From NCBI GenBank assembly GCA_038208605.1, contig JBBQYO010000001.1:1408-65407 (forward strand): DNA of 64,000 nucleotides, read 5' to 3'. Source of the DNA: Gemmatimonadales bacterium (GTDB taxonomy: Bacteria; Gemmatimonadota; Gemmatimonadetes; Gemmatimonadales; Gemmatimonadaceae). The position numbers and the translations under genes are program-made. The notes beneath the pieces were generated by a model. The model had not been told where the DNA came from. It saw nothing but the letters and a program-made list of their open reading frames with translations, and made no database searches. Below, piece by piece: positions 43,969 to 53,364 of this stretch (the first letter of the stretch is position 1; every line of letters begins with the position of its first letter).

Positions 43969-44280
43969 ATGACATCAGCACGTCCTGACAATTCTCCTCG
44001 GCGATCGGTTAGAGCCCTTTTTCATGGCCGCGATCCTGGTCCGCTGCTCGGGCCCTGGCTCGCATGCAGCGTGGTTGCGATCGCGACCTATTTATTCGAG
44101 CGGAAAATGCCGGCCTTCCACGACGTCGTCATCCCGCTTTACTGGCTTCTCCTTATCATCGTTGCGTTCGTCACCTGGCGCTGGGCACGTGCGCGCGCGC
44201 GCGGTCGCGGGGCGGAGCGACGGCACAGCGAGCGCCGCAAGTCAGACAGGGCCGCAGCTCAGACAGGAACTAAGCGGTGA
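43969..44280 (+). CDS. small two-TM hypothetical protein
   Basis: Two hydrophobic helices, basic ERR tail. Confidence 0.65.
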   Translation: MTSARPDNSPRRSVRALFHGRDPGPLLGPWLACSVVAIATYLFERKMPAFHDVVIPLYWLLLIIVAFVTWRWARARARGRGAERRHSERRKSDRAAAQTGTKR

Positions 44281-45646
44281 GGTGCTCGTCTCGGTTCAGA
44301 AATCGTCGCGCCAGCAAGTAGCCCGGCACTCCGATCGCTGCAGATCCCAACGCTGCGATGATCGCGGGGAATCCGTATTCACCGTCTCTCAATTCGAGAC
44401 CCGTGACAATAACGAGAATCACGACGGGTATCGCGGCAAGTACGACCACCCCCGCGGTTCCAGTCGGAATCCGGTACGCGCCTCTAAGCGCGGGCTCTTT
44501 GAGACGAAGAGCGATGAGCGCGCCGAACTCGAGAAAAAGCGCCATCGAATAGAGCAGCACGTCGGCAACGACGAGTTGAGCAAACGACAGGAGCGCGAAT
44601 ACTGAATAGCAGATTGCGGATAGTATGACTGCGCTGCGCGGCGTTCCTCTCGCGTCGGGCCGCGACAGAAATTGCGGAAGCAGTCTGTCTCCTGCCATCG
44701 CGAATGGAATGCGCGAGTACGATAGCAGGAGAGCGTTGAACAGAGCGAGTGCGCTAACCATACCGGCCACGGCCACGCCTACTGCAAGCAGCGGAATTCC
44801 CGTTGCTGCGCGAGCGATTTCCGGCCACCCGCCTTCCCGCCACTTCGTCCAATCACTCGCTCCGAGCGTTGCGGTGAGCGGGATCAGGTAGCCGAGCGTG
44901 ACCAGAGGTAATGTGAAAGCCAGCGCGCGCGGGTAGCTCCGCGTTGCGTCGACGACCTCGCCCTGAACTGTCGACGCGTTATCCCACCCGATGTAGTTCC
45001 ACAATGCGATCGATATTCCCACGCCGAGCCCATTCAATCCGCTCGAACCTTCGACCGTAAACGGCCGCCACGGCACATGATACATGTGCGGCATCGACAC
45101 GATTGAAATGACCAGGAATGTTGCGAGGATGAAGGAGCCGCTGATCACAGAGACAGATCCAACCCGTCCCGCACCCCGCAGGTTGATCAGCGTTGCTCCC
45201 CAGATCACTCCAAGCGCGATGAGCCACTGCGCAACGGGGCCAATGTGCGGAAAGACAAATGCGAGATACTGATTGAACAGCACGGGATAGATCGCCATGT
45301 CGACGAGCGAATACATCCATGTCCACCATCCATTCTGGAACGCCCAGAACGGTCCAAACGCGCGATAGACCCACTTGTAATACCCGCCCTCCTCCGGCAG
45401 CATGCTCGCCAGCTCGGCGACGATCAGAGTTTCGGGAAGCGACCAGAAGATCGGAACGAGGAGCAGGATCAGCAGACCGAGACCCGGGCCAGTGCTGACG
45501 ATCAACGATTCTGTCGTGAACGCGCCACCGGACACGTTGAAGAACATGACGAACACCAGCGACAGAGTCGTCAGTGTTCGGCGCAGTGGAATCGTCAGAT
45601 TTTTCTTGCCTCGCGCTTGCGGAGATGAAAGGCCGATCCGTTCCAT
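44270..45646 (-). CDS. APC family amino acid/polyamine permease
   Basis: FFNVSGGAF..E, AELASMLPEEGGYY.WV, WNYIGWDN, SRIPFAMA.D..LP; about 12 TM segments; alternative CTG start at 45598. Confidence 0.92.
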   Translation of the reverse strand: MERIGLSSPQARGKKNLTIPLRRTLTTLSLVFVMFFNVSGGAFTTESLIVSTGPGLGLLILLLVPIFWSLPETLIVAELASMLPEEGGYYKWVYRAFGPFWAFQNGWWTWMYSLVDMAIYPVLFNQYLAFVFPHIGPVAQWLIALGVIWGATLINLRGAGRVGSVSVISGSFILATFLVISIVSMPHMYHVPWRPFTVEGSSGLNGLGVGISIALWNYIGWDNASTVQGEVVDATRSYPRALAFTLPLVTLGYLIPLTATLGASDWTKWREGGWPEIARAATGIPLLAVGVAVAGMVSALALFNALLLSYSRIPFAMAGDRLLPQFLSRPDARGTPRSAVILSAICYSVFALLSFAQLVVADVLLYSMALFLEFGALIALRLKEPALRGAYRIPTGTAGVVVLAAIPVVILVIVTGLELRDGEYGFPAIIAALGSAAIGVPGYLLARRFLNRDEHLTA

Positions 45647-46575
45647 ATGCTGAACGGACGTTCGCCAGCTACGACCACCTGAAATCCGTATTCCGCAGCA
45701 AGGCGCCTCACATCGGCCTTGTCCGCGTCGTCATCGCCGCTGTACGAATAGTTCAGGATGGCAAAATCACCGATAGGTTTGAGCACTCTCGCGATTTCGC
45801 TGAAATGAGACTCGACCAGTGCGGCGCCTGACTGGTTGATGTACGGTAATGTGTCGACCGCGATGACACTGTCGAACATTGCATCGCCGAAATCCCGAAG
45901 ATCGTGTCCCGTTGTCTTGAGAAGATGAACGTTGGTGAACGGGTCGCATCTCCTGAGCGCAATGTTGATCATCTCTCTCGACACATCGATCCCGTGAACA
46001 TCGCGCACACGCGGTGACAGCTCGACAGCGATGCGTCCGATGCCGCAGCCGAGATCGAGTACCGTCTTCTGTTGACCGAGGACGTTCCAGCGGTCGAGCT
46101 GCTCGATGATCTCTCTCGAGGCGCTCTCCAACAGCGTCGGATTCCCAAGCGAATACAGCGCGACGCTTGCTTCTTCCGACTGCTGGACGGACCAGTCGAA
46201 GAGTCTCTCGCAGAATGCGATGCCGGCCTCGACGGTTGGAGCCATCGACGGCGAATCCATATTGGAACGAAGCATTTCAGCGATCCGCTCGCAGCCGAGC
46301 TCATTTTCCACCATCAGTTGGGTGAGATCATCAACTTTGTCGCGCAGGAGGCTGTCCGTTGCCCTTGAAACCGCAGCGGCACGCTCACCAAGCTCGTTTA
46401 CGATTGACCGTACGACGCCTGCATCCTCCGTATCGATCAGCAGCTGCATCAAAGCGACGGCAGGTGACAATGATCCCGACAGGCAGCGCATCAGGATGTC
46501 GCGGTGCTCCGGCGGCTCGATACCGCTCGTGAGTCTCTTTACCGCTCCATCAGCGAAGTCCGGCTCGTGAGTCAA
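45595..46575 (-). CDS. class I SAM-dependent methyltransferase with an N-terminal helical extension
   Basis: EEASVALYSLGNP, LDLGCGIGR, GIDVS, AVDTLPY, RVLKP. Confidence 0.88.
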   Translation of the reverse strand: MTHEPDFADGAVKRLTSGIEPPEHRDILMRCLSGSLSPAVALMQLLIDTEDAGVVRSIVNELGERAAAVSRATDSLLRDKVDDLTQLMVENELGCERIAEMLRSNMDSPSMAPTVEAGIAFCERLFDWSVQQSEEASVALYSLGNPTLLESASREIIEQLDRWNVLGQQKTVLDLGCGIGRIAVELSPRVRDVHGIDVSREMINIALRRCDPFTNVHLLKTTGHDLRDFGDAMFDSVIAVDTLPYINQSGAALVESHFSEIARVLKPIGDFAILNYSYSGDDDADKADVRRLAAEYGFQVVVAGERPFSIWNGSAFHLRKREARKI

Positions 46576-47873
46576 TCGAGCAATCCCAGCTTCTGCATTC
46601 GTGCGCGATCCTCAGTGATGAACCGCATGCCAATGTCGTTGCGGTAGCGGCAGTTGGGAATCACGACTTTGCCGACACGCTCATATGCCTGCGCTCGCGC
46701 ATCTTCGACCGAGTCGCCCAGACCGGTTACTACCATTATGTAGCCGATCATTCCAGCGGTGACGAGCTGCCCGTTGCTCCTGGACACTTCGCAGAAATGC
46801 AGTGCGTCACGATCGGCATCGGTTAGAGAATCGCGAAAGCAGATCGGCGTGCCTTTTCCAAGCTCCTGGTATCCTTCGGAATACGGGAATGGCGGGACGG
46901 TCAGAACTACTCCGACGGAATAGCCGTCGCGAGTGTCGATCATGGTTTGGCTTCCGTCTGTCATTCCCGCGAAAATCGAGCCCCATCGTTCCCTGTGCAG
47001 CGAATCGAGAATCGGAAATCCCGGATATCCAAAACGGCACGTGAATTCGAGCGGCCAGATTCCATCTTCGTTCACGATCGTGTTGAGATTGATGTAGCCG
47101 CAGTATCCGGACTCTTTGAGCATCGGAGCAATTCGCGCCAGCGTTACATCGAACATCCGCTTCGCGCCGCGATAGGTGACGATCGTTCCCATCTCGCCCG
47201 TCATTTCACCGATGTCTCCGGGAAAGAATTTCTTGTGCTCCCAATCGAGATTCGCGGGTGACAGAAATTGCTTTCCGTTGAAGAACGCGCCCACTCCGAC
47301 TTCCACTCCCGACAGATAGTCCATCAGCACGAAGCTCGGGTCTTCTTCGAGTGTCCACGTGTCGCGCGTGAGAGACAGCATGGCAATCATGTCGGCGCCG
47401 GAGTCCATTTGCCCAACGTACGAACGCGTCGAGGACCAGTTCGTACCATTCAGCTTGAAGACATACCGGCCAGGCGACGTACGCACGAATTCGATAGCGT
47501 CATCGAAGTCCGCAAATACTGTGTTGCGAGCTGTTTTCAAACCCAGCCCGCTCAGGATGTCCTGGCCGAAGTCGCGCTCGATCTCGAGCCGGTCACCGAA
47601 TGCGCTTCCTCCGATAACGTTGAATCCGTCGCGCCTCAGCTCGTCCTGAATCTGTCCGTGTGAGGCTGTCTCGAACAATGCGACCCCATCGCGTCCCGCC
47701 TCGCGAAGCCATCCAAGCTCGTTCTGCCAGTCGCCAGTGAATCGAAGCATGTCCTGCATGACGCCAGCAGAGTTTTCGTCGGACATGAACACGCGAACCT
47801 CATGTCCCTCCTGCATGAGCCGGAGATACATGTCACCAAGATCGTTTGTCTCTCCGATACCGAGAAATCTCAC
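46572..47873 (-). CDS. PurD (GARS)-like ATP-grasp ligase, divergent
   Basis: IGGS...DRLE..R.FG, YVFK, GVEVGVG, EHKKFFPGDIGEMTGEMGT, LEFTCRFGYP, YRNDIG; GTGA overlap with the upstream gene. Confidence 0.85.
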   Translation of the reverse strand: MRFLGIGETNDLGDMYLRLMQEGHEVRVFMSDENSAGVMQDMLRFTGDWQNELGWLREAGRDGVALFETASHGQIQDELRRDGFNVIGGSAFGDRLEIERDFGQDILSGLGLKTARNTVFADFDDAIEFVRTSPGRYVFKLNGTNWSSTRSYVGQMDSGADMIAMLSLTRDTWTLEEDPSFVLMDYLSGVEVGVGAFFNGKQFLSPANLDWEHKKFFPGDIGEMTGEMGTIVTYRGAKRMFDVTLARIAPMLKESGYCGYINLNTIVNEDGIWPLEFTCRFGYPGFPILDSLHRERWGSIFAGMTDGSQTMIDTRDGYSVGVVLTVPPFPYSEGYQELGKGTPICFRDSLTDADRDALHFCEVSRSNGQLVTAGMIGYIMVVTGLGDSVEDARAQAYERVGKVVIPNCRYRNDIGMRFITEDRARMQKLGLLD

Positions 47874-48892
47874 GCCGCAGAAGTAGCGAGACTTGCAACC
47901 TCGCCATGCAGCGATGCCCTCAAGCGCAGCTCGTCCCATCTGTCGAGCAGCCAGGCTCTCACGGGCACCGGGGCGATTGGATTGACGAGAGCCTGAATCC
48001 CCTCCGACGCGAAATCCGAGCAGAGGCGCTCAACAGCATCTCCGCCGCCAGTGTTCTCTCTGCCGGCAGATACCGGCGAGAAATCACCCGCCATCAGCAG
48101 GTACCCAAATCGAGCCGCGCCGTCCGGCGCGACCACCGATCGCAGCTCATCGCTTTCATTGATGTAAGCGTGAGGCAGTGATCTCAGATGCTCGTGAACC
48201 ATTCCCGAGTATTCGCCGTCGGCGATCGCCACGACGAACAATGAGTTCAGCACGTATCCACTCTCTTCTGCCTGTCGGACCACCCGCCCGGGATCAGACA
48301 GACTACACCACGACAACGCCATCGCCCTCGGCTTCACCTTCTCCGCCAGCTCGATCGTTCGCATCAGATGTGCGGTTCCATCTTCTCCAGCACCTGCTTC
48401 GAGCTCGAGACTCCAGTCGGGCGGCTCTGGCACGTACGGTGGATTGCAGATTAGAAGATTCGGCCCGTATGCGCCGAGCATGTTGGCTGTCGCATCGGAC
48501 CAGAGATCGATGCAATCGAATTCGGCGCGATCATGCAACCCGAGAGTGCCGGCATTTCCTCTCGCCGTTTGGACGGCGCCTGGATCGACATCGAGCGCGG
48601 CCAGCCTGCTGCCGTGCTCGATCTTGAGCAGGTGAAGGCCGACGAGACCACTTCCAGTTGTAAGCTCCGCAATTCGCAGCGGTTCGTGGAATTCCTGGCG
48701 AACGCTGCTTCCTGGCGTGCGCGCGTGCGCGAGTGCTGCTTCAGCGGCACACACGCAGAGCAGGGTATCCTCGGGCGAAAAGAACGACGTAAATCGAAAA
48801 GGGGGAGCAAACGCGCGAAGTCGGCTTGCTTCGTCGATGAACGGGGCAAGCGTCTTGTTACTCTCGACTGGACGTCCAAAACGATGTGGCAT
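47870..48892 (-). CDS. HemK/PrmC-like (NPPY) N-methyltransferase
   Basis: PEDT, ELTTGSGLVG motif I variant, LDVDP.AV..A..N, ICNPPYVP, GAGEDG. Confidence 0.82.
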   Translation of the reverse strand: MPHRFGRPVESNKTLAPFIDEASRLRAFAPPFRFTSFFSPEDTLLCVCAAEAALAHARTPGSSVRQEFHEPLRIAELTTGSGLVGLHLLKIEHGSRLAALDVDPGAVQTARGNAGTLGLHDRAEFDCIDLWSDATANMLGAYGPNLLICNPPYVPEPPDWSLELEAGAGEDGTAHLMRTIELAEKVKPRAMALSWCSLSDPGRVVRQAEESGYVLNSLFVVAIADGEYSGMVHEHLRSLPHAYINESDELRSVVAPDGAARFGYLLMAGDFSPVSAGRENTGGGDAVERLCSDFASEGIQALVNPIAPVPVRAWLLDRWDELRLRASLHGEVASLATSAA

Positions 48893-49002
48893 GAATCCGA
48901 GCAGTCCGTAAAAGAAGGCTCATCTTTTGCAAATTGGAGCATTACAGCGCGCCCTGGATGTGCAGCGCTGATCATTGATCTTTGCACAGGCCGAGCCACA
49001 CC

Positions 49003-50127
49003 ATGCTTGAATCCATAGAGATCCCCACCGTTCCTTTACTTCCGCCAGTGGCAGGTGCTGGGTCGACGGCCGAAAGGAGGCTCAGCGGAATGCTCAGAAG
49101 CATTGTCGAAGAGCGGGACCTTGACGGTTTTCTCGAGCGGGAAATCGGCCTCGAAGAGGAGCTTGTCACCGAAGCTCGCACACTCGCACGACGGGCATAC
49201 CCTGCGGATCGCACCACAGACAGGCAGAGCGCCAGCTGGATCGACCACTCAGCACGTGACGAGATGCATCGATCCCTCGTGGTTCTGTATCAGCAGCACC
49301 TGCGGCTTCCTACCGACTCGGCACTCGCGAATCAGTACCACCCGCTTCCCTGTAGAGTGCTTAGAGAGCTCGAGCTTCCGTGGGAGAGCGACATGCTCCG
49401 AAGAATTCGCGCGAGTCATTCATTTTCTCCGGATTCGCTTCCGGAAGGCCCGGCGGAATTCAGTCAGTGGTACAAGACGACTGCGTTCAATCATCCCCTT
49501 TACGAGCATGATCTCTACGCATTCCTGGCCAGCGAAGCGACAAGACCTCAGCTCGAGTGGTTCTTCAGAATGGAGTGCGCTGGCGAGGCTGCCTTCGATG
49601 ATCTTGTCGCACTCGCGCAAGTCGGTACACGAGGCGAAGTGAAGATGGAGATGGCTTCGAATTACTGGGACGAAATGGGAAAGGGAAAAACGCACGCCGT
49701 TCACACGCATCTTTTTCATCGCCTGATCGAGGGCCTCAACATTCAGTCGCCTGATGCATCCGAGCTGCCGTGGCAGGTTCTTTCCGGAGTCAATGTGATG
49801 CTCTGGAGCTGCATCCCGCGACGAAATGCGTTTCGCGCCCAGGGCACCCTCGGCGCAGTGGAGCTGCTTGCCCCGCAGAGATGCACACGCGTCGTTCATG
49901 GTGCGCTTCGAGTCGGGATGAAAAAAAAAGCAGTCGTCTATTACGGTGCCCATGCGATAATCGACATCGGTCACGCCGAAGGCTGGCTGAGCCATGTGAT
50001 CGAGCCGCAGGTCAATGCCTTCCCTGACTCTCGTGCCGGTATCGCCGAGGGATTGTTGATCAGGGCAGACGCAAGTCTCGACTACTTCGACTATTGCCTG
50101 GCGGCAGCCAGGCAGATCGCGGCATGA
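49003..50127 (+). CDS. heme-oxygenase-like diiron oxidase (HDO, iron-containing redox enzyme family)
   Basis: FDDLVALAQ, NYWDEMG.G...VH..LF, AVE, YY.AH..ID.GH..GW: the E/H/E/H/D/H diiron ligand set. Confidence 0.88.
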   Translation: MLESIEIPTVPLLPPVAGAGSTAERRLSGMLRSIVEERDLDGFLEREIGLEEELVTEARTLARRAYPADRTTDRQSASWIDHSARDEMHRSLVVLYQQHLRLPTDSALANQYHPLPCRVLRELELPWESDMLRRIRASHSFSPDSLPEGPAEFSQWYKTTAFNHPLYEHDLYAFLASEATRPQLEWFFRMECAGEAAFDDLVALAQVGTRGEVKMEMASNYWDEMGKGKTHAVHTHLFHRLIEGLNIQSPDASELPWQVLSGVNVMLWSCIPRRNAFRAQGTLGAVELLAPQRCTRVVHGALRVGMKKKAVVYYGAHAIIDIGHAEGWLSHVIEPQVNAFPDSRAGIAEGLLIRADASLDYFDYCLAAARQIAA

Positions 50128-50146: not shown

Positions 50147-50173
50147 AAAAGCCCCGGCACGCCGGGGCTTTTT
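50147..50173. terminator. bidirectional intrinsic terminator
   Basis: AAAAGCCCCGGC-AC-GCCGGGGCTTTTT between convergent genes. Confidence 0.85.
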
Positions 50174-50199: not shown

Positions 50200-51141
50200 T
50201 CAGGCTGAACCAACGACGACCATCGGACCAGTGGGTGATGGCATTCCACCTTCGGGCTCCTCTGTGATGGCGACGGCCTTCAATGCATCGCGCGCGAGTG
50301 CGTAGTTCGCGTGCATGACGGTTCTTCCCTGCGAGTCTGGACGGAAAGTGCCAGCTGAAATTTTTGCCTTGTCAGTCACCAGCCACACTTGATACGTCTT
50401 CCCGGGTTTGGGGGCTGGCAGGCCGTAGGTCACCATCATCCAGTCGTTGGTCACCCGATTCCAGAACATTCGTCCAAGCGGTTGAGGCGCACTCTTGTCG
50501 GCAAGAGCGACAACCTTCACGTCGGAGCCGGCCATCGCAGTGATCATCGCGTCCTTCTCGGTAAGCAGCGACGCCATGCTGTCGCTCTTCGGCTGCCCGG
50601 TGTCACCGCTCGCCAACTCGGAACGCATCGCGCTGTTTTCTCTCGTCACGCGAAATAGCTGCACACCAGTAATCACGAATGCGACTGTTGCAGCGATCGC
50701 ATACCAGTTCAATCGTCGGGGCACCGGCTCGAACGCGACGTGCCGGCGCGTTGGCGCTGGAGGAGTCACCACTCGCTTCTGCTCGAGAGAAACTGGTCGC
50801 TGCGCACCCGGCGTAGCTTTGTGCCCCAAACCAGTCAGGCTCGCCACTCCTCGAGCCAGATCGGGCGGACCTGGAGTGGGGGCCGCGTGTGACTCACGCT
50901 CATTACGGGCGCGCATGATGAGACGCGAGCGAATTCCGGCGCCGCGACCGAGATTCATTTTCGTGGTGGGCACCAGCTCGCCAAGTGCAGCCACCGTCGC
51001 TTCCATTGCTGCGAGCTCGGGCCCGCACTCGGGACAGACCGACGCATGAGCACGCACGGACTCGGCGACCTCGGCAGAGGCCGAGTCGAGCGCAACCGCT
51101 GCCAGCTCGGAGGACGCCTCCTCGTGGCTCATCTCGGTCAC
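50200..51141 (-). CDS. anti-sigma factor (RskA-like)
   Basis: HxxxCxxC ZAS motif, one TM segment, LPAP..GKTYQVW, ISAGTF, AITEEP.GG..SPTG. Confidence 0.9.
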   Translation of the reverse strand: MTEMSHEEASSELAAVALDSASAEVAESVRAHASVCPECGPELAAMEATVAALGELVPTTKMNLGRGAGIRSRLIMRARNERESHAAPTPGPPDLARGVASLTGLGHKATPGAQRPVSLEQKRVVTPPAPTRRHVAFEPVPRRLNWYAIAATVAFVITGVQLFRVTRENSAMRSELASGDTGQPKSDSMASLLTEKDAMITAMAGSDVKVVALADKSAPQPLGRMFWNRVTNDWMMVTYGLPAPKPGKTYQVWLVTDKAKISAGTFRPDSQGRTVMHANYALARDALKAVAITEEPEGGMPSPTGPMVVVGSA

Positions 51142-51800
51142 TCCGTCACCCTGCGATGCATTGATAGTGGCTCCCTCAGTTTCTGCATTGCCAGACGCAT
51201 TCGCGTTTTGACAGTTCCAAGCGGCTGACCCGTTCTGTCAGCGATTTCCGTTTGACTCAAACCACCGAAATATCCAAGCTCGAGCACTTCTCGCTGCTCA
51301 GCCGGCAGCTCTTTCATGGCTGCCATCACATGCGTCCTGAGCTCACTCCCCTCGGTCTCTTCCGACGGATCGAGACCGGGCGCCGCCATGTCCGCGAACG
51401 TTCTGTCTCCACCTACCGGATCTTCGCGATAGCGGCGCCTGGCACGAATCCGGTCGAGTGCCTTTCGCCGTCCGATAGTCAGCAGCCATGTGGACACCGC
51501 GCCTTTTGAGGGCTCGTACGTCGATGATTTCTTCCAGGCCTGCCAGAACGTTTCTTCAACGACATCTTCCGCTTCATCGGCATCCTGCAACAAATGGAAG
51601 ACCAGCGAATACAGTGAACGAACCCATCGATCGTACAGAGCACCGAGTGCTGTTTCGTCGGCATCGCACATGCGTCGGATCAGCGCCACATCGTCGGCGT
51701 TCGATCTTGTCTGACTGGAATACGATACTTCCCGCTCGGACGGATTCATCGGCCTCGAATCTACCACAGGGTTTTTTTCACTGCCAAGCATATGCGGCAC
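51138..51800 (-). CDS. ECF sigma-70 factor (SigK-like); start may be 51749
   Basis: ALGALYDR, AEDVVEETF.QAW, WLLTI.RRKALD, GLSQTEIA...G.PLGTVKTRMR. Confidence 0.93.
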   Translation of the reverse strand: MPHMLGSEKNPVVDSRPMNPSEREVSYSSQTRSNADDVALIRRMCDADETALGALYDRWVRSLYSLVFHLLQDADEAEDVVEETFWQAWKKSSTYEPSKGAVSTWLLTIGRRKALDRIRARRRYREDPVGGDRTFADMAAPGLDPSEETEGSELRTHVMAAMKELPAEQREVLELGYFGGLSQTEIADRTGQPLGTVKTRMRLAMQKLREPLSMHRRVTE

Positions 51801-51855
51801 AGCGTGATGTGCGCTATTCGGTCAAGGCATTAATCGTGCGAAACCGCCATCGACA

Positions 51856-51894
51856 GAAAAAGAAGAGCCGGGGCAGCGCGTGTCGCCCCGGCTC
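51856..51894 (-). terminator. glnA intrinsic terminator
   Basis: GAGCCGGGGC/GCCCCGGCTC stem with a U-rich tail on the minus strand. Confidence 0.7.
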
Positions 51895-51996
51895 GGTTTG
51901 ATCCTGTCAGCTGTACCGCTGTTCACCGATGACTGTTGACTGTTGACTGAGCTTGGAACCGGATAGCCGTAGCTGCGTTACCCGGTCGTAGCACCG

Positions 51997-53364
51997 TCAG
52001 TACTTCGCTAAGTAATTATCAAGCTCCCACTGCGAAACCTGCGTGATGTACTCCTCCCACTCCTGGCGCTTTGCTGCGAGAAAGTTCGATGTGATGTGCT
52101 CGCCCAGCGCTTCCTTGATCACCGTATCCCTCTCCAGCTCGTTGCACGCTTCTTCGAGGTTGTGCGGCAGGTCGTCGATCTTGAGCCGCCGCTTCTCGCG
52201 GTGTGACATCTCCCAGATGTTGGTGTTCACTGGCTCACGCGCGTCGGTCTTGTTCTCGATTCCGTCGAGGCCTGCGGCAAGCTGAACTGCCAGCGCCAGG
52301 TACGGGTTCGCGGCGGGATCGGGAATGCGCAACTCGCAACGCGTGCCGAGCCCGCGACGATCAGGAATACGAATCATCGGAGTGCGATTGCGCATCGACC
52401 ACGCAACGTTCACCGGTGCTTCGTAGCCCGGCACCAGTCGCTTGTACGAATTCACGAGCGGGTTGGTGATCGCGCAGAATCCGCGCGCGTGACTCAACAA
52501 TCCGCCGATGTAATTCAGCGCCGTCGCGGACAGCTCCCACTGGGCCGACTTGTCCCAGAACGCATTCTCTTTTCCGCGGAACAGCGACTGATGCGTGTGC
52601 ATTCCGCTGCCGTTCTGGCCAAACACCGGCTTCGGCATGAACGACGCCATCAAGCCAAACTGCTGAGCGACATGACGGACGATGAAACGGAACGTCGCAA
52701 TGTTATCTGCAGTCTTCAGCGCATCCGCATAGCGGAAATCGATCTCGTGCTGTCCGTGCGCTACTTCATGATGCGCCGCTTCGACTTCAAAACCCATCTT
52801 CTCGAGTACTTCGACAATCGCTCGTCGTGCGTCCTCACCGAGATCTACCGGCGCCAGATCGAAGTATGCGCCGACGTCGTGCGTCGTTGTCGTCGCTTCT
52901 CCATTCGGCCCCGTCTTGAACATGAAGAACTCCGCCTCCATGCCTGCGTTCATCGTCGAGAATCCCAGCCCGCGGGCACGGTCGAGCTGGCGCCGCAATA
53001 CGCGCCTCGGATCGCCGGCAAACGGCTCGCCATCAGGCGTATTAATGTCGCAGATGAGGCGGGCTACGCGGTTATCATCGTCGCCCCACGGAAAGATCTG
53101 AAACGTGCTGAGATCGGGCGACAGCAGCATGTCCGACTCCTCGATCCGAACGAAACCTTCGATCGACGATCCGTCGAACATGATGTCGCCGTCGAGGGCC
53201 TTCGCGAATTGAGACCGCGGAATCTCGACGTTCTTGTTGACGCCGAGGATGTCAGTGAACTGAAGCCGCAGAAAATGAACGTTGCTGCTCGAAGCAAGGT
53301 CGAGAATGTCTTTCTTGCTGGCTCCGGTCGTGTCCGGAGCAGCGGGACTTTTCTTGGGAGGCAC
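51997..53364 (-). CDS. glnA: type I glutamine synthetase
   Basis: QFTDILG, FDGSSIEGF, HHEVAHGQHEI, FMPKP, NGSGMH, NSYKRLVPGYEAP, ELR.PDP.ANPYLA. Confidence 0.97.
   Translation of the reverse strand: MPPKKSPAAPDTTGASKKDILDLASSSNVHFLRLQFTDILGVNKNVEIPRSQFAKALDGDIMFDGSSIEGFVRIEESDMLLSPDLSTFQIFPWGDDDNRVARLICDINTPDGEPFAGDPRRVLRRQLDRARGLGFSTMNAGMEAEFFMFKTGPNGEATTTTHDVGAYFDLAPVDLGEDARRAIVEVLEKMGFEVEAAHHEVAHGQHEIDFRYADALKTADNIATFRFIVRHVAQQFGLMASFMPKPVFGQNGSGMHTHQSLFRGKENAFWDKSAQWELSATALNYIGGLLSHARGFCAITNPLVNSYKRLVPGYEAPVNVAWSMRNRTPMIRIPDRRGLGTRCELRIPDPAANPYLALAVQLAAGLDGIENKTDAREPVNTNIWEMSHREKRRLKIDDLPHNLEEACNELERDTVIKEALGEHITSNFLAAKRQEWEEYITQVSQWELDNYLAKY

Follow-up and report, generated by a model that had tools for sequence, protein, structure and literature searches.

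What might a heme-oxygenase-like diiron oxidase (HDO) be doing beside two methyltransferases, a PurD-like ATP-grasp ligase and an APC amino-acid permease, at a place where no other purine gene is recognised? The question is raised by a locus at 44270..50127 of a 64,000-nucleotide stretch of DNA from a Gemmatimonadales bacterium of soil and sediment (assembly GCA_038208605.1, contig JBBQYO010000001.1, positions 1,408 to 65,407), the whole of which is referred to here as the window, and whose host was placed in the Gemmatimonadaceae by its named relatives. An initial annotation, made from the letters alone, had read the five genes as an orphan pathway, independent of non-ribosomal peptide synthetases (NRPS), for a methylated, oxidised amino-acid product with its own transporter. 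The data presented below show that the HDO and the first methyltransferase (MT1, of the NPPY type) are an inseparable core, to which the ligase and the second methyltransferase (MT2) are frequent, deletable add-ons. By analogy with characterised enzymes, we give about an even chance to the reading that these four enzymes, whose genes are predicted to be under sigma-54 control, convert a basic amino acid (of the lysine/ornithine type, possibly derived from arginine) into a small product that is N-oxidised and methylated. What is new is the Gemmatimonadaceae variant of the module, its pair of promoter motifs, the deletion pattern and a link to a dihydrolase. The features of the locus are as follows.

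49003..50127, plus strand: HDO, predicted HrmI/BelK subfamily of the 3His/3carboxylate type, 374 aa; core gene
47870..48892, minus strand: MT1, 340 aa, an NPPY-type (HemK-fold) S-adenosylmethionine (SAM) methyltransferase from a clade specific to the Gemmatimonadaceae; core gene
46572..47873, minus strand: PurD-paralog ATP-grasp ligase with a putatively rebuilt substrate site, 433 aa from GTG 47873; frequent, deletable
45595..46575, minus strand: MT2, 326 aa, a class I SAM methyltransferase whose first 105 or so residues form a helical domain; accessory gene, as a rule downstream of the ligase
44270..45598, minus strand: APC amino-acid permease, 442 aa from CTG 45598; probably a lineage-level neighbour
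48917..48931, plus strand: predicted sigma-54-type -24/-12 motif (GG-N10-GC) directed towards the HDO
48983..48997, minus strand: predicted sigma-54-type -24/-12 motif directed towards MT1-ligase-MT2, face-to-face with the HDO-side motif
50147..50173: hairpin of an intrinsic terminator that probably serves both the HDO gene and rskA, which run towards each other here

All five open reading frames (ORFs) claimed for the locus are present, and the overlaps of the minus-strand genes (GTGA at 47870-47873, TTGA at 46572-46575 and CTGA at 45595-45598) read as described. The divergent gap, put at about 110 bp, measures 110 bp with the most likely HDO start, ATG 49003. At the position of the ligase start, GTG 47873, a GTG or ATG stands in all 12 relatives that show the pattern (14 were examined), while the APC start, CTG 45598, aligns with an ATG in L018 and a CTG in L015, and is supported because L015 has no upstream ATG. 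Reading of ORFs of at least 80 aa between 38000 and 56000, nine of which were also scanned with profiles, recognised no other pur gene, as had been stated. The assembly is 78.9% complete, GC content is even across the module region, and contigs from two public DNA runs, both from a single study and possibly from the source sample itself, span the stretch with 0 indels and 0 joints; no RNA run was listed as a carrier.

The core pair and its add-ons

Gene linkage was examined in two collections of loci that are kin and partly near-duplicates: 88 ligase loci (8 plus the best 80 of at least 595 matches) and a separate MT1 set of 80 metagenome loci (the best 80 of 283). In both, the module genes co-occur well beyond the window genome. 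Among the ligase loci, which come from Gemmatimonadota, Myxococcota, Acidobacteriota, Pseudomonadota, Planctomycetota, Verrucomicrobiota and Fibrobacterota, an NPPY methyltransferase was found at 79, an HDO-type gene at 76 and both at 73; an equivalent trio, called canonical here where it occurs outside the Gemmatimonadaceae, thus recurs across many phyla, one carrier being the environmental isolate Rhodopseudomonas rhenobacensis (L089). MT2 and APC lie within 4 kb at 17 and 4 of these loci, respectively. The 301 family genomes contain the HDO in 17, MT1 in 17 (16 shared), MT2 in 14 and APC in 91, such that 16 of the 18 genomes having either the HDO or MT1 have both. A close ligase occurs in six of them, with one more cut by a contig end, and three further ligase matches represent a distant subtype with no HDO.

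Gene order is similarly regular. Within the MT1 set, the HDO and MT1 are divergently oriented at 57 of the 58 loci with enough flank to tell, the ligase lies directly downstream of MT1 in 58 of 68, and MT2 follows the ligase in 36 of 36. In the remaining 10 of the 68 loci the ligase is missing, and MT2 or its remnant stands in its place. The ligase profile likewise found no match in five of five genomes that have the HDO and MT1 and are 92-100% complete. Among plasmid records, 21 carry the canonical methyltransferase, 4 carry the ligase and none carries both, and canonical HDO-methyltransferase pairs occur on ligase-free replicons. A natural methyltransferase-HDO fusion also exists in other phyla (P0273, 5 cluster members). 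The pair of HDO and NPPY methyltransferase is the core, since the ligase is optional.

The ligase-free loci bear directly on the order of events. In the mangotoxin pathway, MboA acts on a tripeptide built by ATP-grasp enzymes, and at least 25 types of HDO plus ATP-grasp clusters have been distinguished (PMC13185094). A corresponding order here would have the ligase build a dipeptide first, with the HDO then desaturating or cleaving it. However, the HDO and MT1 remain intact where the ligase has been lost, in the 10 loci and the five genomes just described, canonical pairs persist on replicons that carry no ligase, and MboA is not among the PDB matches of the HDO, leaving this order rather improbable in our estimation. 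Because the core is retained where the ligase is lost, the ligase step is probably a later one in the preferred pathway.

The same surveys speak to the permease (PF13520, 147 bits), which the initial annotation had taken for the pathway's own transporter. A five-gene pathway with a dedicated transporter would fit the overlap of the APC start with the MT2 stop in the window, the proximity of APC to the module at 9 of the 23 MT1-set loci that are informative, and, taken alone, its absence from five of five same-genus genomes without the cluster. In contrast, only 10 of the 91 family genomes with an APC ortholog (two of them unpublished) have the HDO, the two genes are on different contigs in G079, G129, G073, G125 and G164, and APC was found near none of the 71 non-Gemmatimonadota loci. 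With a distribution not tied to the enzymes, a cluster-dedicated transporter was rejected as an identity for this gene, and we regard a five-gene pathway as very improbable. The permease is probably a recruited, lineage-level neighbour, and of the unit originally proposed it is the four-enzyme, NRPS-independent module that is conserved. Convergent with the APC gene, an ORF of membrane type (43969-44280, plus strand; 103 aa) has no Pfam match and is kept in close relatives.

The oxidase, the ligase and the methyltransferases

The HDO ORF is open from TTG 48982 (381 aa), and its only Pfam domain is PF14518 (112 bits). As the initial annotation held, it has a full set of diiron ligands, E231, H241, E294, H324, D328 and H331 (numbered from TTG 48982), which are invariant or nearly so in both the Gemmatimonadaceae and the canonical HDO groups. 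Together with Y320, these match E205, H215, E269, H299, D303, H306 and Y295 of BelK (PMC11611017). HrmI (9n1a) is the only meaningful PDB match of the window HDO (E 9.9e-40), and it is also the top solved relative for the profiles of both groups, at 160 bits for the Gemmatimonadaceae version and 164 bits for that of other phyla. By sequence, therefore, the window HDO is a member of the HrmI/BelK subfamily, of the 3His/3carboxylate type. HrmI and BelK N-oxygenate the side-chain amine of lysine (PMC13108848, PMC11611017), HrmI taking it to N6-hydroxylysine and on to the nitro level (PMC13108848).

SznF was also considered as a model. The seventh Glu ligand of SznF (E189) and RohS (E98) lies 26 residues ahead of the first core Glu (E215 and E124; PMC13133933). 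By sequence spacing, this position is Phe205 in the window HDO, and the Phe is conserved in both HDO groups. A Pfam scan found no cupin domain in the 381-aa ORF, the canonical HDO profile gives SznF 29 bits, and that of the Gemmatimonadaceae version does not list it. Judged by the Phe, the lack of a cupin domain and the HrmI-like scores, membership in the SznF/RohS type (3His/4carboxylate) appears ruled out.

Several other HDO-related proteins were encountered in these searches. In Comamonadaceae and Methylotenera (L037, L039, L047, L050, L052, L055, L059, L064, L065 and L079), the HDO is replaced by a different protein, roughly 500 aa long, which shows an HDO-like E..H, E, H..D..H pattern and has no PDB match. 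HrmI-subfamily HDO domains are fused to cNMP-binding, PNPOx, DAG-kinase and ArgRS-like domains in P0254, P0303, P0376 and P0385. A Klebsiella variicola plasmid (L135:4956-7696) encodes an HDO with a weak PhyH-type 2-oxoglutarate oxygenase and a LysE exporter, an arrangement that resembles an hrmI/hrmJ-type pair.

The ligase has GARS_A and GARS_C domains, and PurD structures are its only PDB matches, but it scores 111.6 bits against a cut-off of 288 for TIGR00877. A search for a separate, canonical purD found one on contig C29 (462.6 bits), and a housekeeping purD identity for the ligase was thereby ruled out. Compared with the genome's own PurD, the ligase has lost GGAREH, and QDHK has become WEHK, NTGGMG has become MTGEMG and EFNCRFGDPE has become EFTCRFGYPG. 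These replacements are the norm across 89 ligase ORFs, in which the NTGGMG position reads (L/M)TGEMG and none of the patterns GG[RG]EH, QDHK and EFNxRFGDPE occurs (0/89). The first of these patterns is too narrow, because the genome's own PurD reads GGAREH, and the alignment is therefore the better test. The altered segments are those that we take to bind phosphoribosylamine, glycine and metal. The ligase is accordingly predicted from its sequence to keep ATP-dependent acyl transfer and to have a changed amine acceptor. We found no role for a PurD-fold ligase outside purine synthesis in our literature searches. More distant PurD-like ligases (30-43% identity) occur at L012-L014 and L119-L121 and in phage MW202796.1, with hosts that include an archaeon; at L012-L014 and L119-L121 no HDO or NPPY partner stands beside them.

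MT1 keeps its NPPY motif invariant in 70 of 70 aligned sequences. In its predicted model (pLDDT 92.9), the closest folds are TrmM, HEMK2, PrmC, PrmA and AerE (Z 16.3-17.5, 15-22% identity). It scores 51.7 bits against the PrmC cut-off of 199.1 (TIGR03534) and lies below every NCBIfam cut-off, so that a HemK/PrmC release-factor methyltransferase, whose motif and fold it has, was rejected as its identity. MT2 matches Methyltransf_25/11, and its model (pLDDT 89.1) suggests a class I domain resembling small-molecule and N-methyltransferase folds (Z about 20), in a fold search that barely covered the N-terminal helical domain; an Atlas search with this N-terminal part gave only leads, all under 0.9. 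At L116:2960-3307, which has no ligase either, and at L023:9302-9607, only a 5' remnant of MT2 is left, and spacing suggests the same loss in L154, L155, L162, L166, L172, L173 and L210. At L020:10273-11088, and equivalently in L007, L018, L023 and L046, the gene after MT2 is an unannotated ORF of membrane type, about 270 aa long. In L007, L018 and L020 it sits between MT2 and APC, and the two are adjacent in the window because it is absent there.

The fold relatives of MT1, which include a peptide amide N-methyltransferase (AerE), raise the possibility that the module modifies a protein, a ribosomal peptide or a nucleic acid rather than a free small molecule. SET-domain genes beside some canonical loci and the cited role of an HDO in ribosomal peptide modification (PMC13108848) are consistent with this. 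However, no small ORF family (ORFs of at least 70 aa) recurs by the module across phyla, the closest HDO relative acts on a free amino acid, and the dihydrolase and cyanophycin neighbours described below supply free amino acids. We consider a macromolecular target to be a poor prospect, and the modification of a free basic amino acid is retained as the preferred reading.

Divergence, control and substrate clues

In the phylum-wide sample, MT1 was found in none of 400 other genomes, compared with 16 of 300 in the family sample. Across 58 loci, identity was compared between the canonical trio and the Gemmatimonadaceae version at a fixed level of ligase similarity (52-62% identical). Canonical HDOs and methyltransferases are then 56% and 49% identical to one another, while between the two versions the HDO falls to 32% and MT1 to 24%. 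As the ligases are 55% identical in the latter comparison, a change of substrate is possible. MT1 can be aligned with the canonical methyltransferase over the catalytic core only. In quick unrooted trees (34 and 60 selected rows), the Gemmatimonadaceae HDO forms a clade apart from the canonical HDO, whereas the Gemmatimonadaceae-version ligases fall among the canonical ones. From these sequence comparisons, the HDO/MT1 pair appears to have been either exchanged or fast-evolving in the Gemmatimonadaceae.

The control region also distinguishes this version. In the gap between the HDO and MT1, two GG-N10-GC motifs stand face to face, at 48917-48931 (plus strand) and 48997-48983 (minus strand). 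The pattern was drawn from 11 discovery loci, 10 of which have both motifs, and was then checked in 64 held-out loci fetched later. There, the HDO-facing motif was found in 61 (2.25 expected from shuffles), the MT1-facing motif in 58 (1.9 expected) and both together in 55, with about two expected per strand. The HDO-facing motif was also present in 8 of 10 further intergenic stretches, ligase-less pairs included. GG-N10-GC is the consensus spacing of sigma-54 promoters, and on this ground the pair is predicted to be of the sigma-54 type. The genome encodes rpoN (428.6 bits, above the cut-off), and a scan for sigma-70 promoters found none. In other phyla the motif is weak or absent (6 of 63 regions against 3.2 expected, 5 of 51 against 1.2 and 4 of 71 against 3.4), and it was rejected as a general feature of the trio. 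There, a GGAAC..GTT motif, of general-stress type, precedes 7 of 63 canonical methyltransferases (1.3 expected). A genome-wide scan with the sigma-54-type motif gave no clear regulon (59 matches, 14 outside long ORFs), and the strict pattern was not enriched (6 matches against 12-19 in shuffles). A single match of 13.5 bits to the sigma-54-type matrix lies upstream of an ORF on genome contig C20 (about 14593, plus strand) that, from its N-terminus, is presumably dnaK.

The strong terminator proposed after the HDO was borne out by folding, with the hairpin at 50147-50173 giving z = -4.4 and none of 200 shuffles as good, although it was missed by a simple terminator scan. With A/T runs before and after it, the hairpin is probably shared with rskA. 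The RskA-type anti-sigma gene, an extracytoplasmic function (ECF) sigma gene and glnA (window 50200-53364) flank the module in the close clade only, and appear to mark the insertion site, sharing the terminator, rather than to belong to the pathway.

Clues to the substrate come mainly from the canonical trio. Around the 71 non-Gemmatimonadota loci, 230 flanking ORFs were scanned with Pfam, and five proved to be DDAH-family genes. A profile built from these and from L140 picked up another five loci, with scores of 170-201 bits for four of them and 74 for the fifth. A dihydrolase domain thus lies in or beside the canonical trio at 10 of 71 loci, in Gammaproteobacteria, Myxococcota and Alphaproteobacteria, often between the HDO and the methyltransferase; in L140 it forms a fusion with the methyltransferase, and the HDO comes immediately after. 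The closest structures are Alr4995 and Sll1336 (E 1.3e-82 to 1e-77), taken here to be AgrE and ArgZ, arginine dihydrolases that form ornithine. This recurrence is a pointer to arginine/ornithine. One pair, in Sphingobium yanoikuyae, comes after the genes for cyanophycin synthetase, isoaspartyl peptidase and cyanophycinase, in an operon that both makes and degrades cyanophycin. Stress genes are frequent neighbours of the canonical trio as well, including catalases, peroxidase, Ku, LigD and glycogen-debranching-type enzymes. Separately, in one Gammaproteobacterium (L026:9292-11615), Methyltransf_33 histidine-methyltransferase and pyridoxal phosphate lyase genes adjoin the canonical module, on the same strand as the HDO and methyltransferase.

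These neighbours, a guanidino-processing fold both linked and fused to the canonical trio, are compatible with a route like that of streptozotocin, in which MT1 would methylate the guanidino group of arginine and the HDO would hydroxylate it, with the resulting N-hydroxy-N-methylarginine either being ligated or yielding a reactive nitrogen species on breakdown. NPPY enzymes are established to methylate planar nitrogens. SznE is an arginine-guanidino methyltransferase that works with the HDO SznF (PMC11705231). Nonetheless, the window HDO lacks a cupin domain and carries Phe where SznF has its seventh ligand, its HrmI scores are far above those of SznF, and no dihydrolase stands beside the Gemmatimonadaceae version. 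We therefore view the guanidino route as unlikely, and favour oxidation of a side-chain amine, as follows.

Proposed pathway and known systems

Based on the kinship with HrmI and BelK, the HDO would take a side-chain amine, with O2 as oxidant, to a hydroxylamine, an oxime or a nitro group. MT1, judging from its NPPY fold, would methylate a planar nitrogen of the same molecule, a step that may precede or follow the oxidation. The PurD-fold ligase may then activate an amino-acid carboxylate with ATP and join it to an amine or hydroxylamine, and MT2 may add another methyl group. The part of the initial annotation that proposed a methylated, oxidised amino-acid product is thus consistent with a conserved module for which no characterised match was found, while the transporter assigned to it is not.

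A number of observations weigh against this pathway. An identical ligand set also serves HDOs that break C-C bonds or desaturate their substrates (PMC13108848), and the fold neighbours of the NPPY enzyme MT1 act on proteins, peptides and RNA. The HDO and MT1 are far less alike between the two versions than the ligase is, MT2 is also found unlinked and without the ligase, and the loci counted are kin. Moreover, the dihydrolase was found beside none of the 80 loci of the Gemmatimonadaceae version and was absent from the window genome (79% complete; best score 23 bits), and only unlinked copies were seen in relatives (two of five).

The occurrence of the trio in many phyla suggests a role in common physiology rather than a rare antibiotic cluster, and by analogy with that equivalent trio the product probably serves stress physiology. 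A broader proposal, which we put forward tentatively and would not ourselves expect to hold in full, is a widespread and regulated soil-bacterial pathway to an undescribed N-oxidised, N-methylated basic-amino-acid metabolite (e.g., a small hydroxamate or a reactive-nitrogen carrier) that uses a PurD-fold ligase repurposed from purine synthesis, with the Gemmatimonadaceae having retained this ligase but swapped the HDO/methyltransferase pair and placed it under face-to-face sigma-54 promoters to give a different product from a modular toolkit. Only about a dozen HDOs have been functionally validated (PMC13108848). Each new HDO subfamily has tended to bring new chemistry, and the module pairs an HrmI-type HDO with an NPPY methyltransferase and a PurD-fold ligase. 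The dihydrolase, the cyanophycin operon, the fusions and the deletions narrow the candidate substrates to a few and suggest an order of steps, and the pathway would give a poorly studied soil family a defined biosynthetic route and a regulatory motif.

As the initial annotation supposed, the locus is not a recognised characterised cluster: no pathway match or description was found in our literature searches, with the reservation that the HDO plus ATP-grasp cluster types listed in Fig. S2C of PMC13185094 may include the trio. The module resembles several pathways that combine an HDO with a methyltransferase or an amide ligase, namely those of streptozotocin, belactosin and mangotoxin, and departs from each. 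Individually, MT1 shares fold and NPPY motif with HemK/PrmC, HEMK2, AerE and TrmM, but is genetically tied to an HDO and is only 15-22% identical to them. The ligase shares with PurD the ATP-grasp A and C domains and the HK, GD.G..TG.MG and E.xxRFG motifs, but has no GARS_N match and no GGxREH. The mangotoxin mbo cluster, with MboA and ATP-grasp ligases, follows the same NRPS-independent HDO plus ATP-grasp logic (PMC13185094), whereas its HDO is of another subfamily, and here the ligase is PurD-fold and deletable and there are two methyltransferases. The streptozotocin analogy drawn initially stands insofar as SznE and SznF likewise pair a methyltransferase with an HDO on a basic amino acid (PMC11705231), but it is a loose one, as the window HDO is HrmI-like and has neither the cupin domain nor the seventh Glu ligand of SznF. 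The nearest systems are hormaomycin and belactosin, the latter likewise built by discrete amide ligases (PMC11611017). HrmI and BelK belong to the same predicted HDO subfamily, with the six ligands, the essential Tyr and a Phe at the seventh-ligand position, although a helix motif that reads ETNLDPKFDD in HrmI is ECAGEAAFDD in the window HDO. None of the nine window ORFs scanned is a 2-oxoglutarate oxygenase (cyclopropanase) of the HrmJ/BelL kind, and the partners of the window HDO are instead methyltransferases and a PurD-fold ligase.

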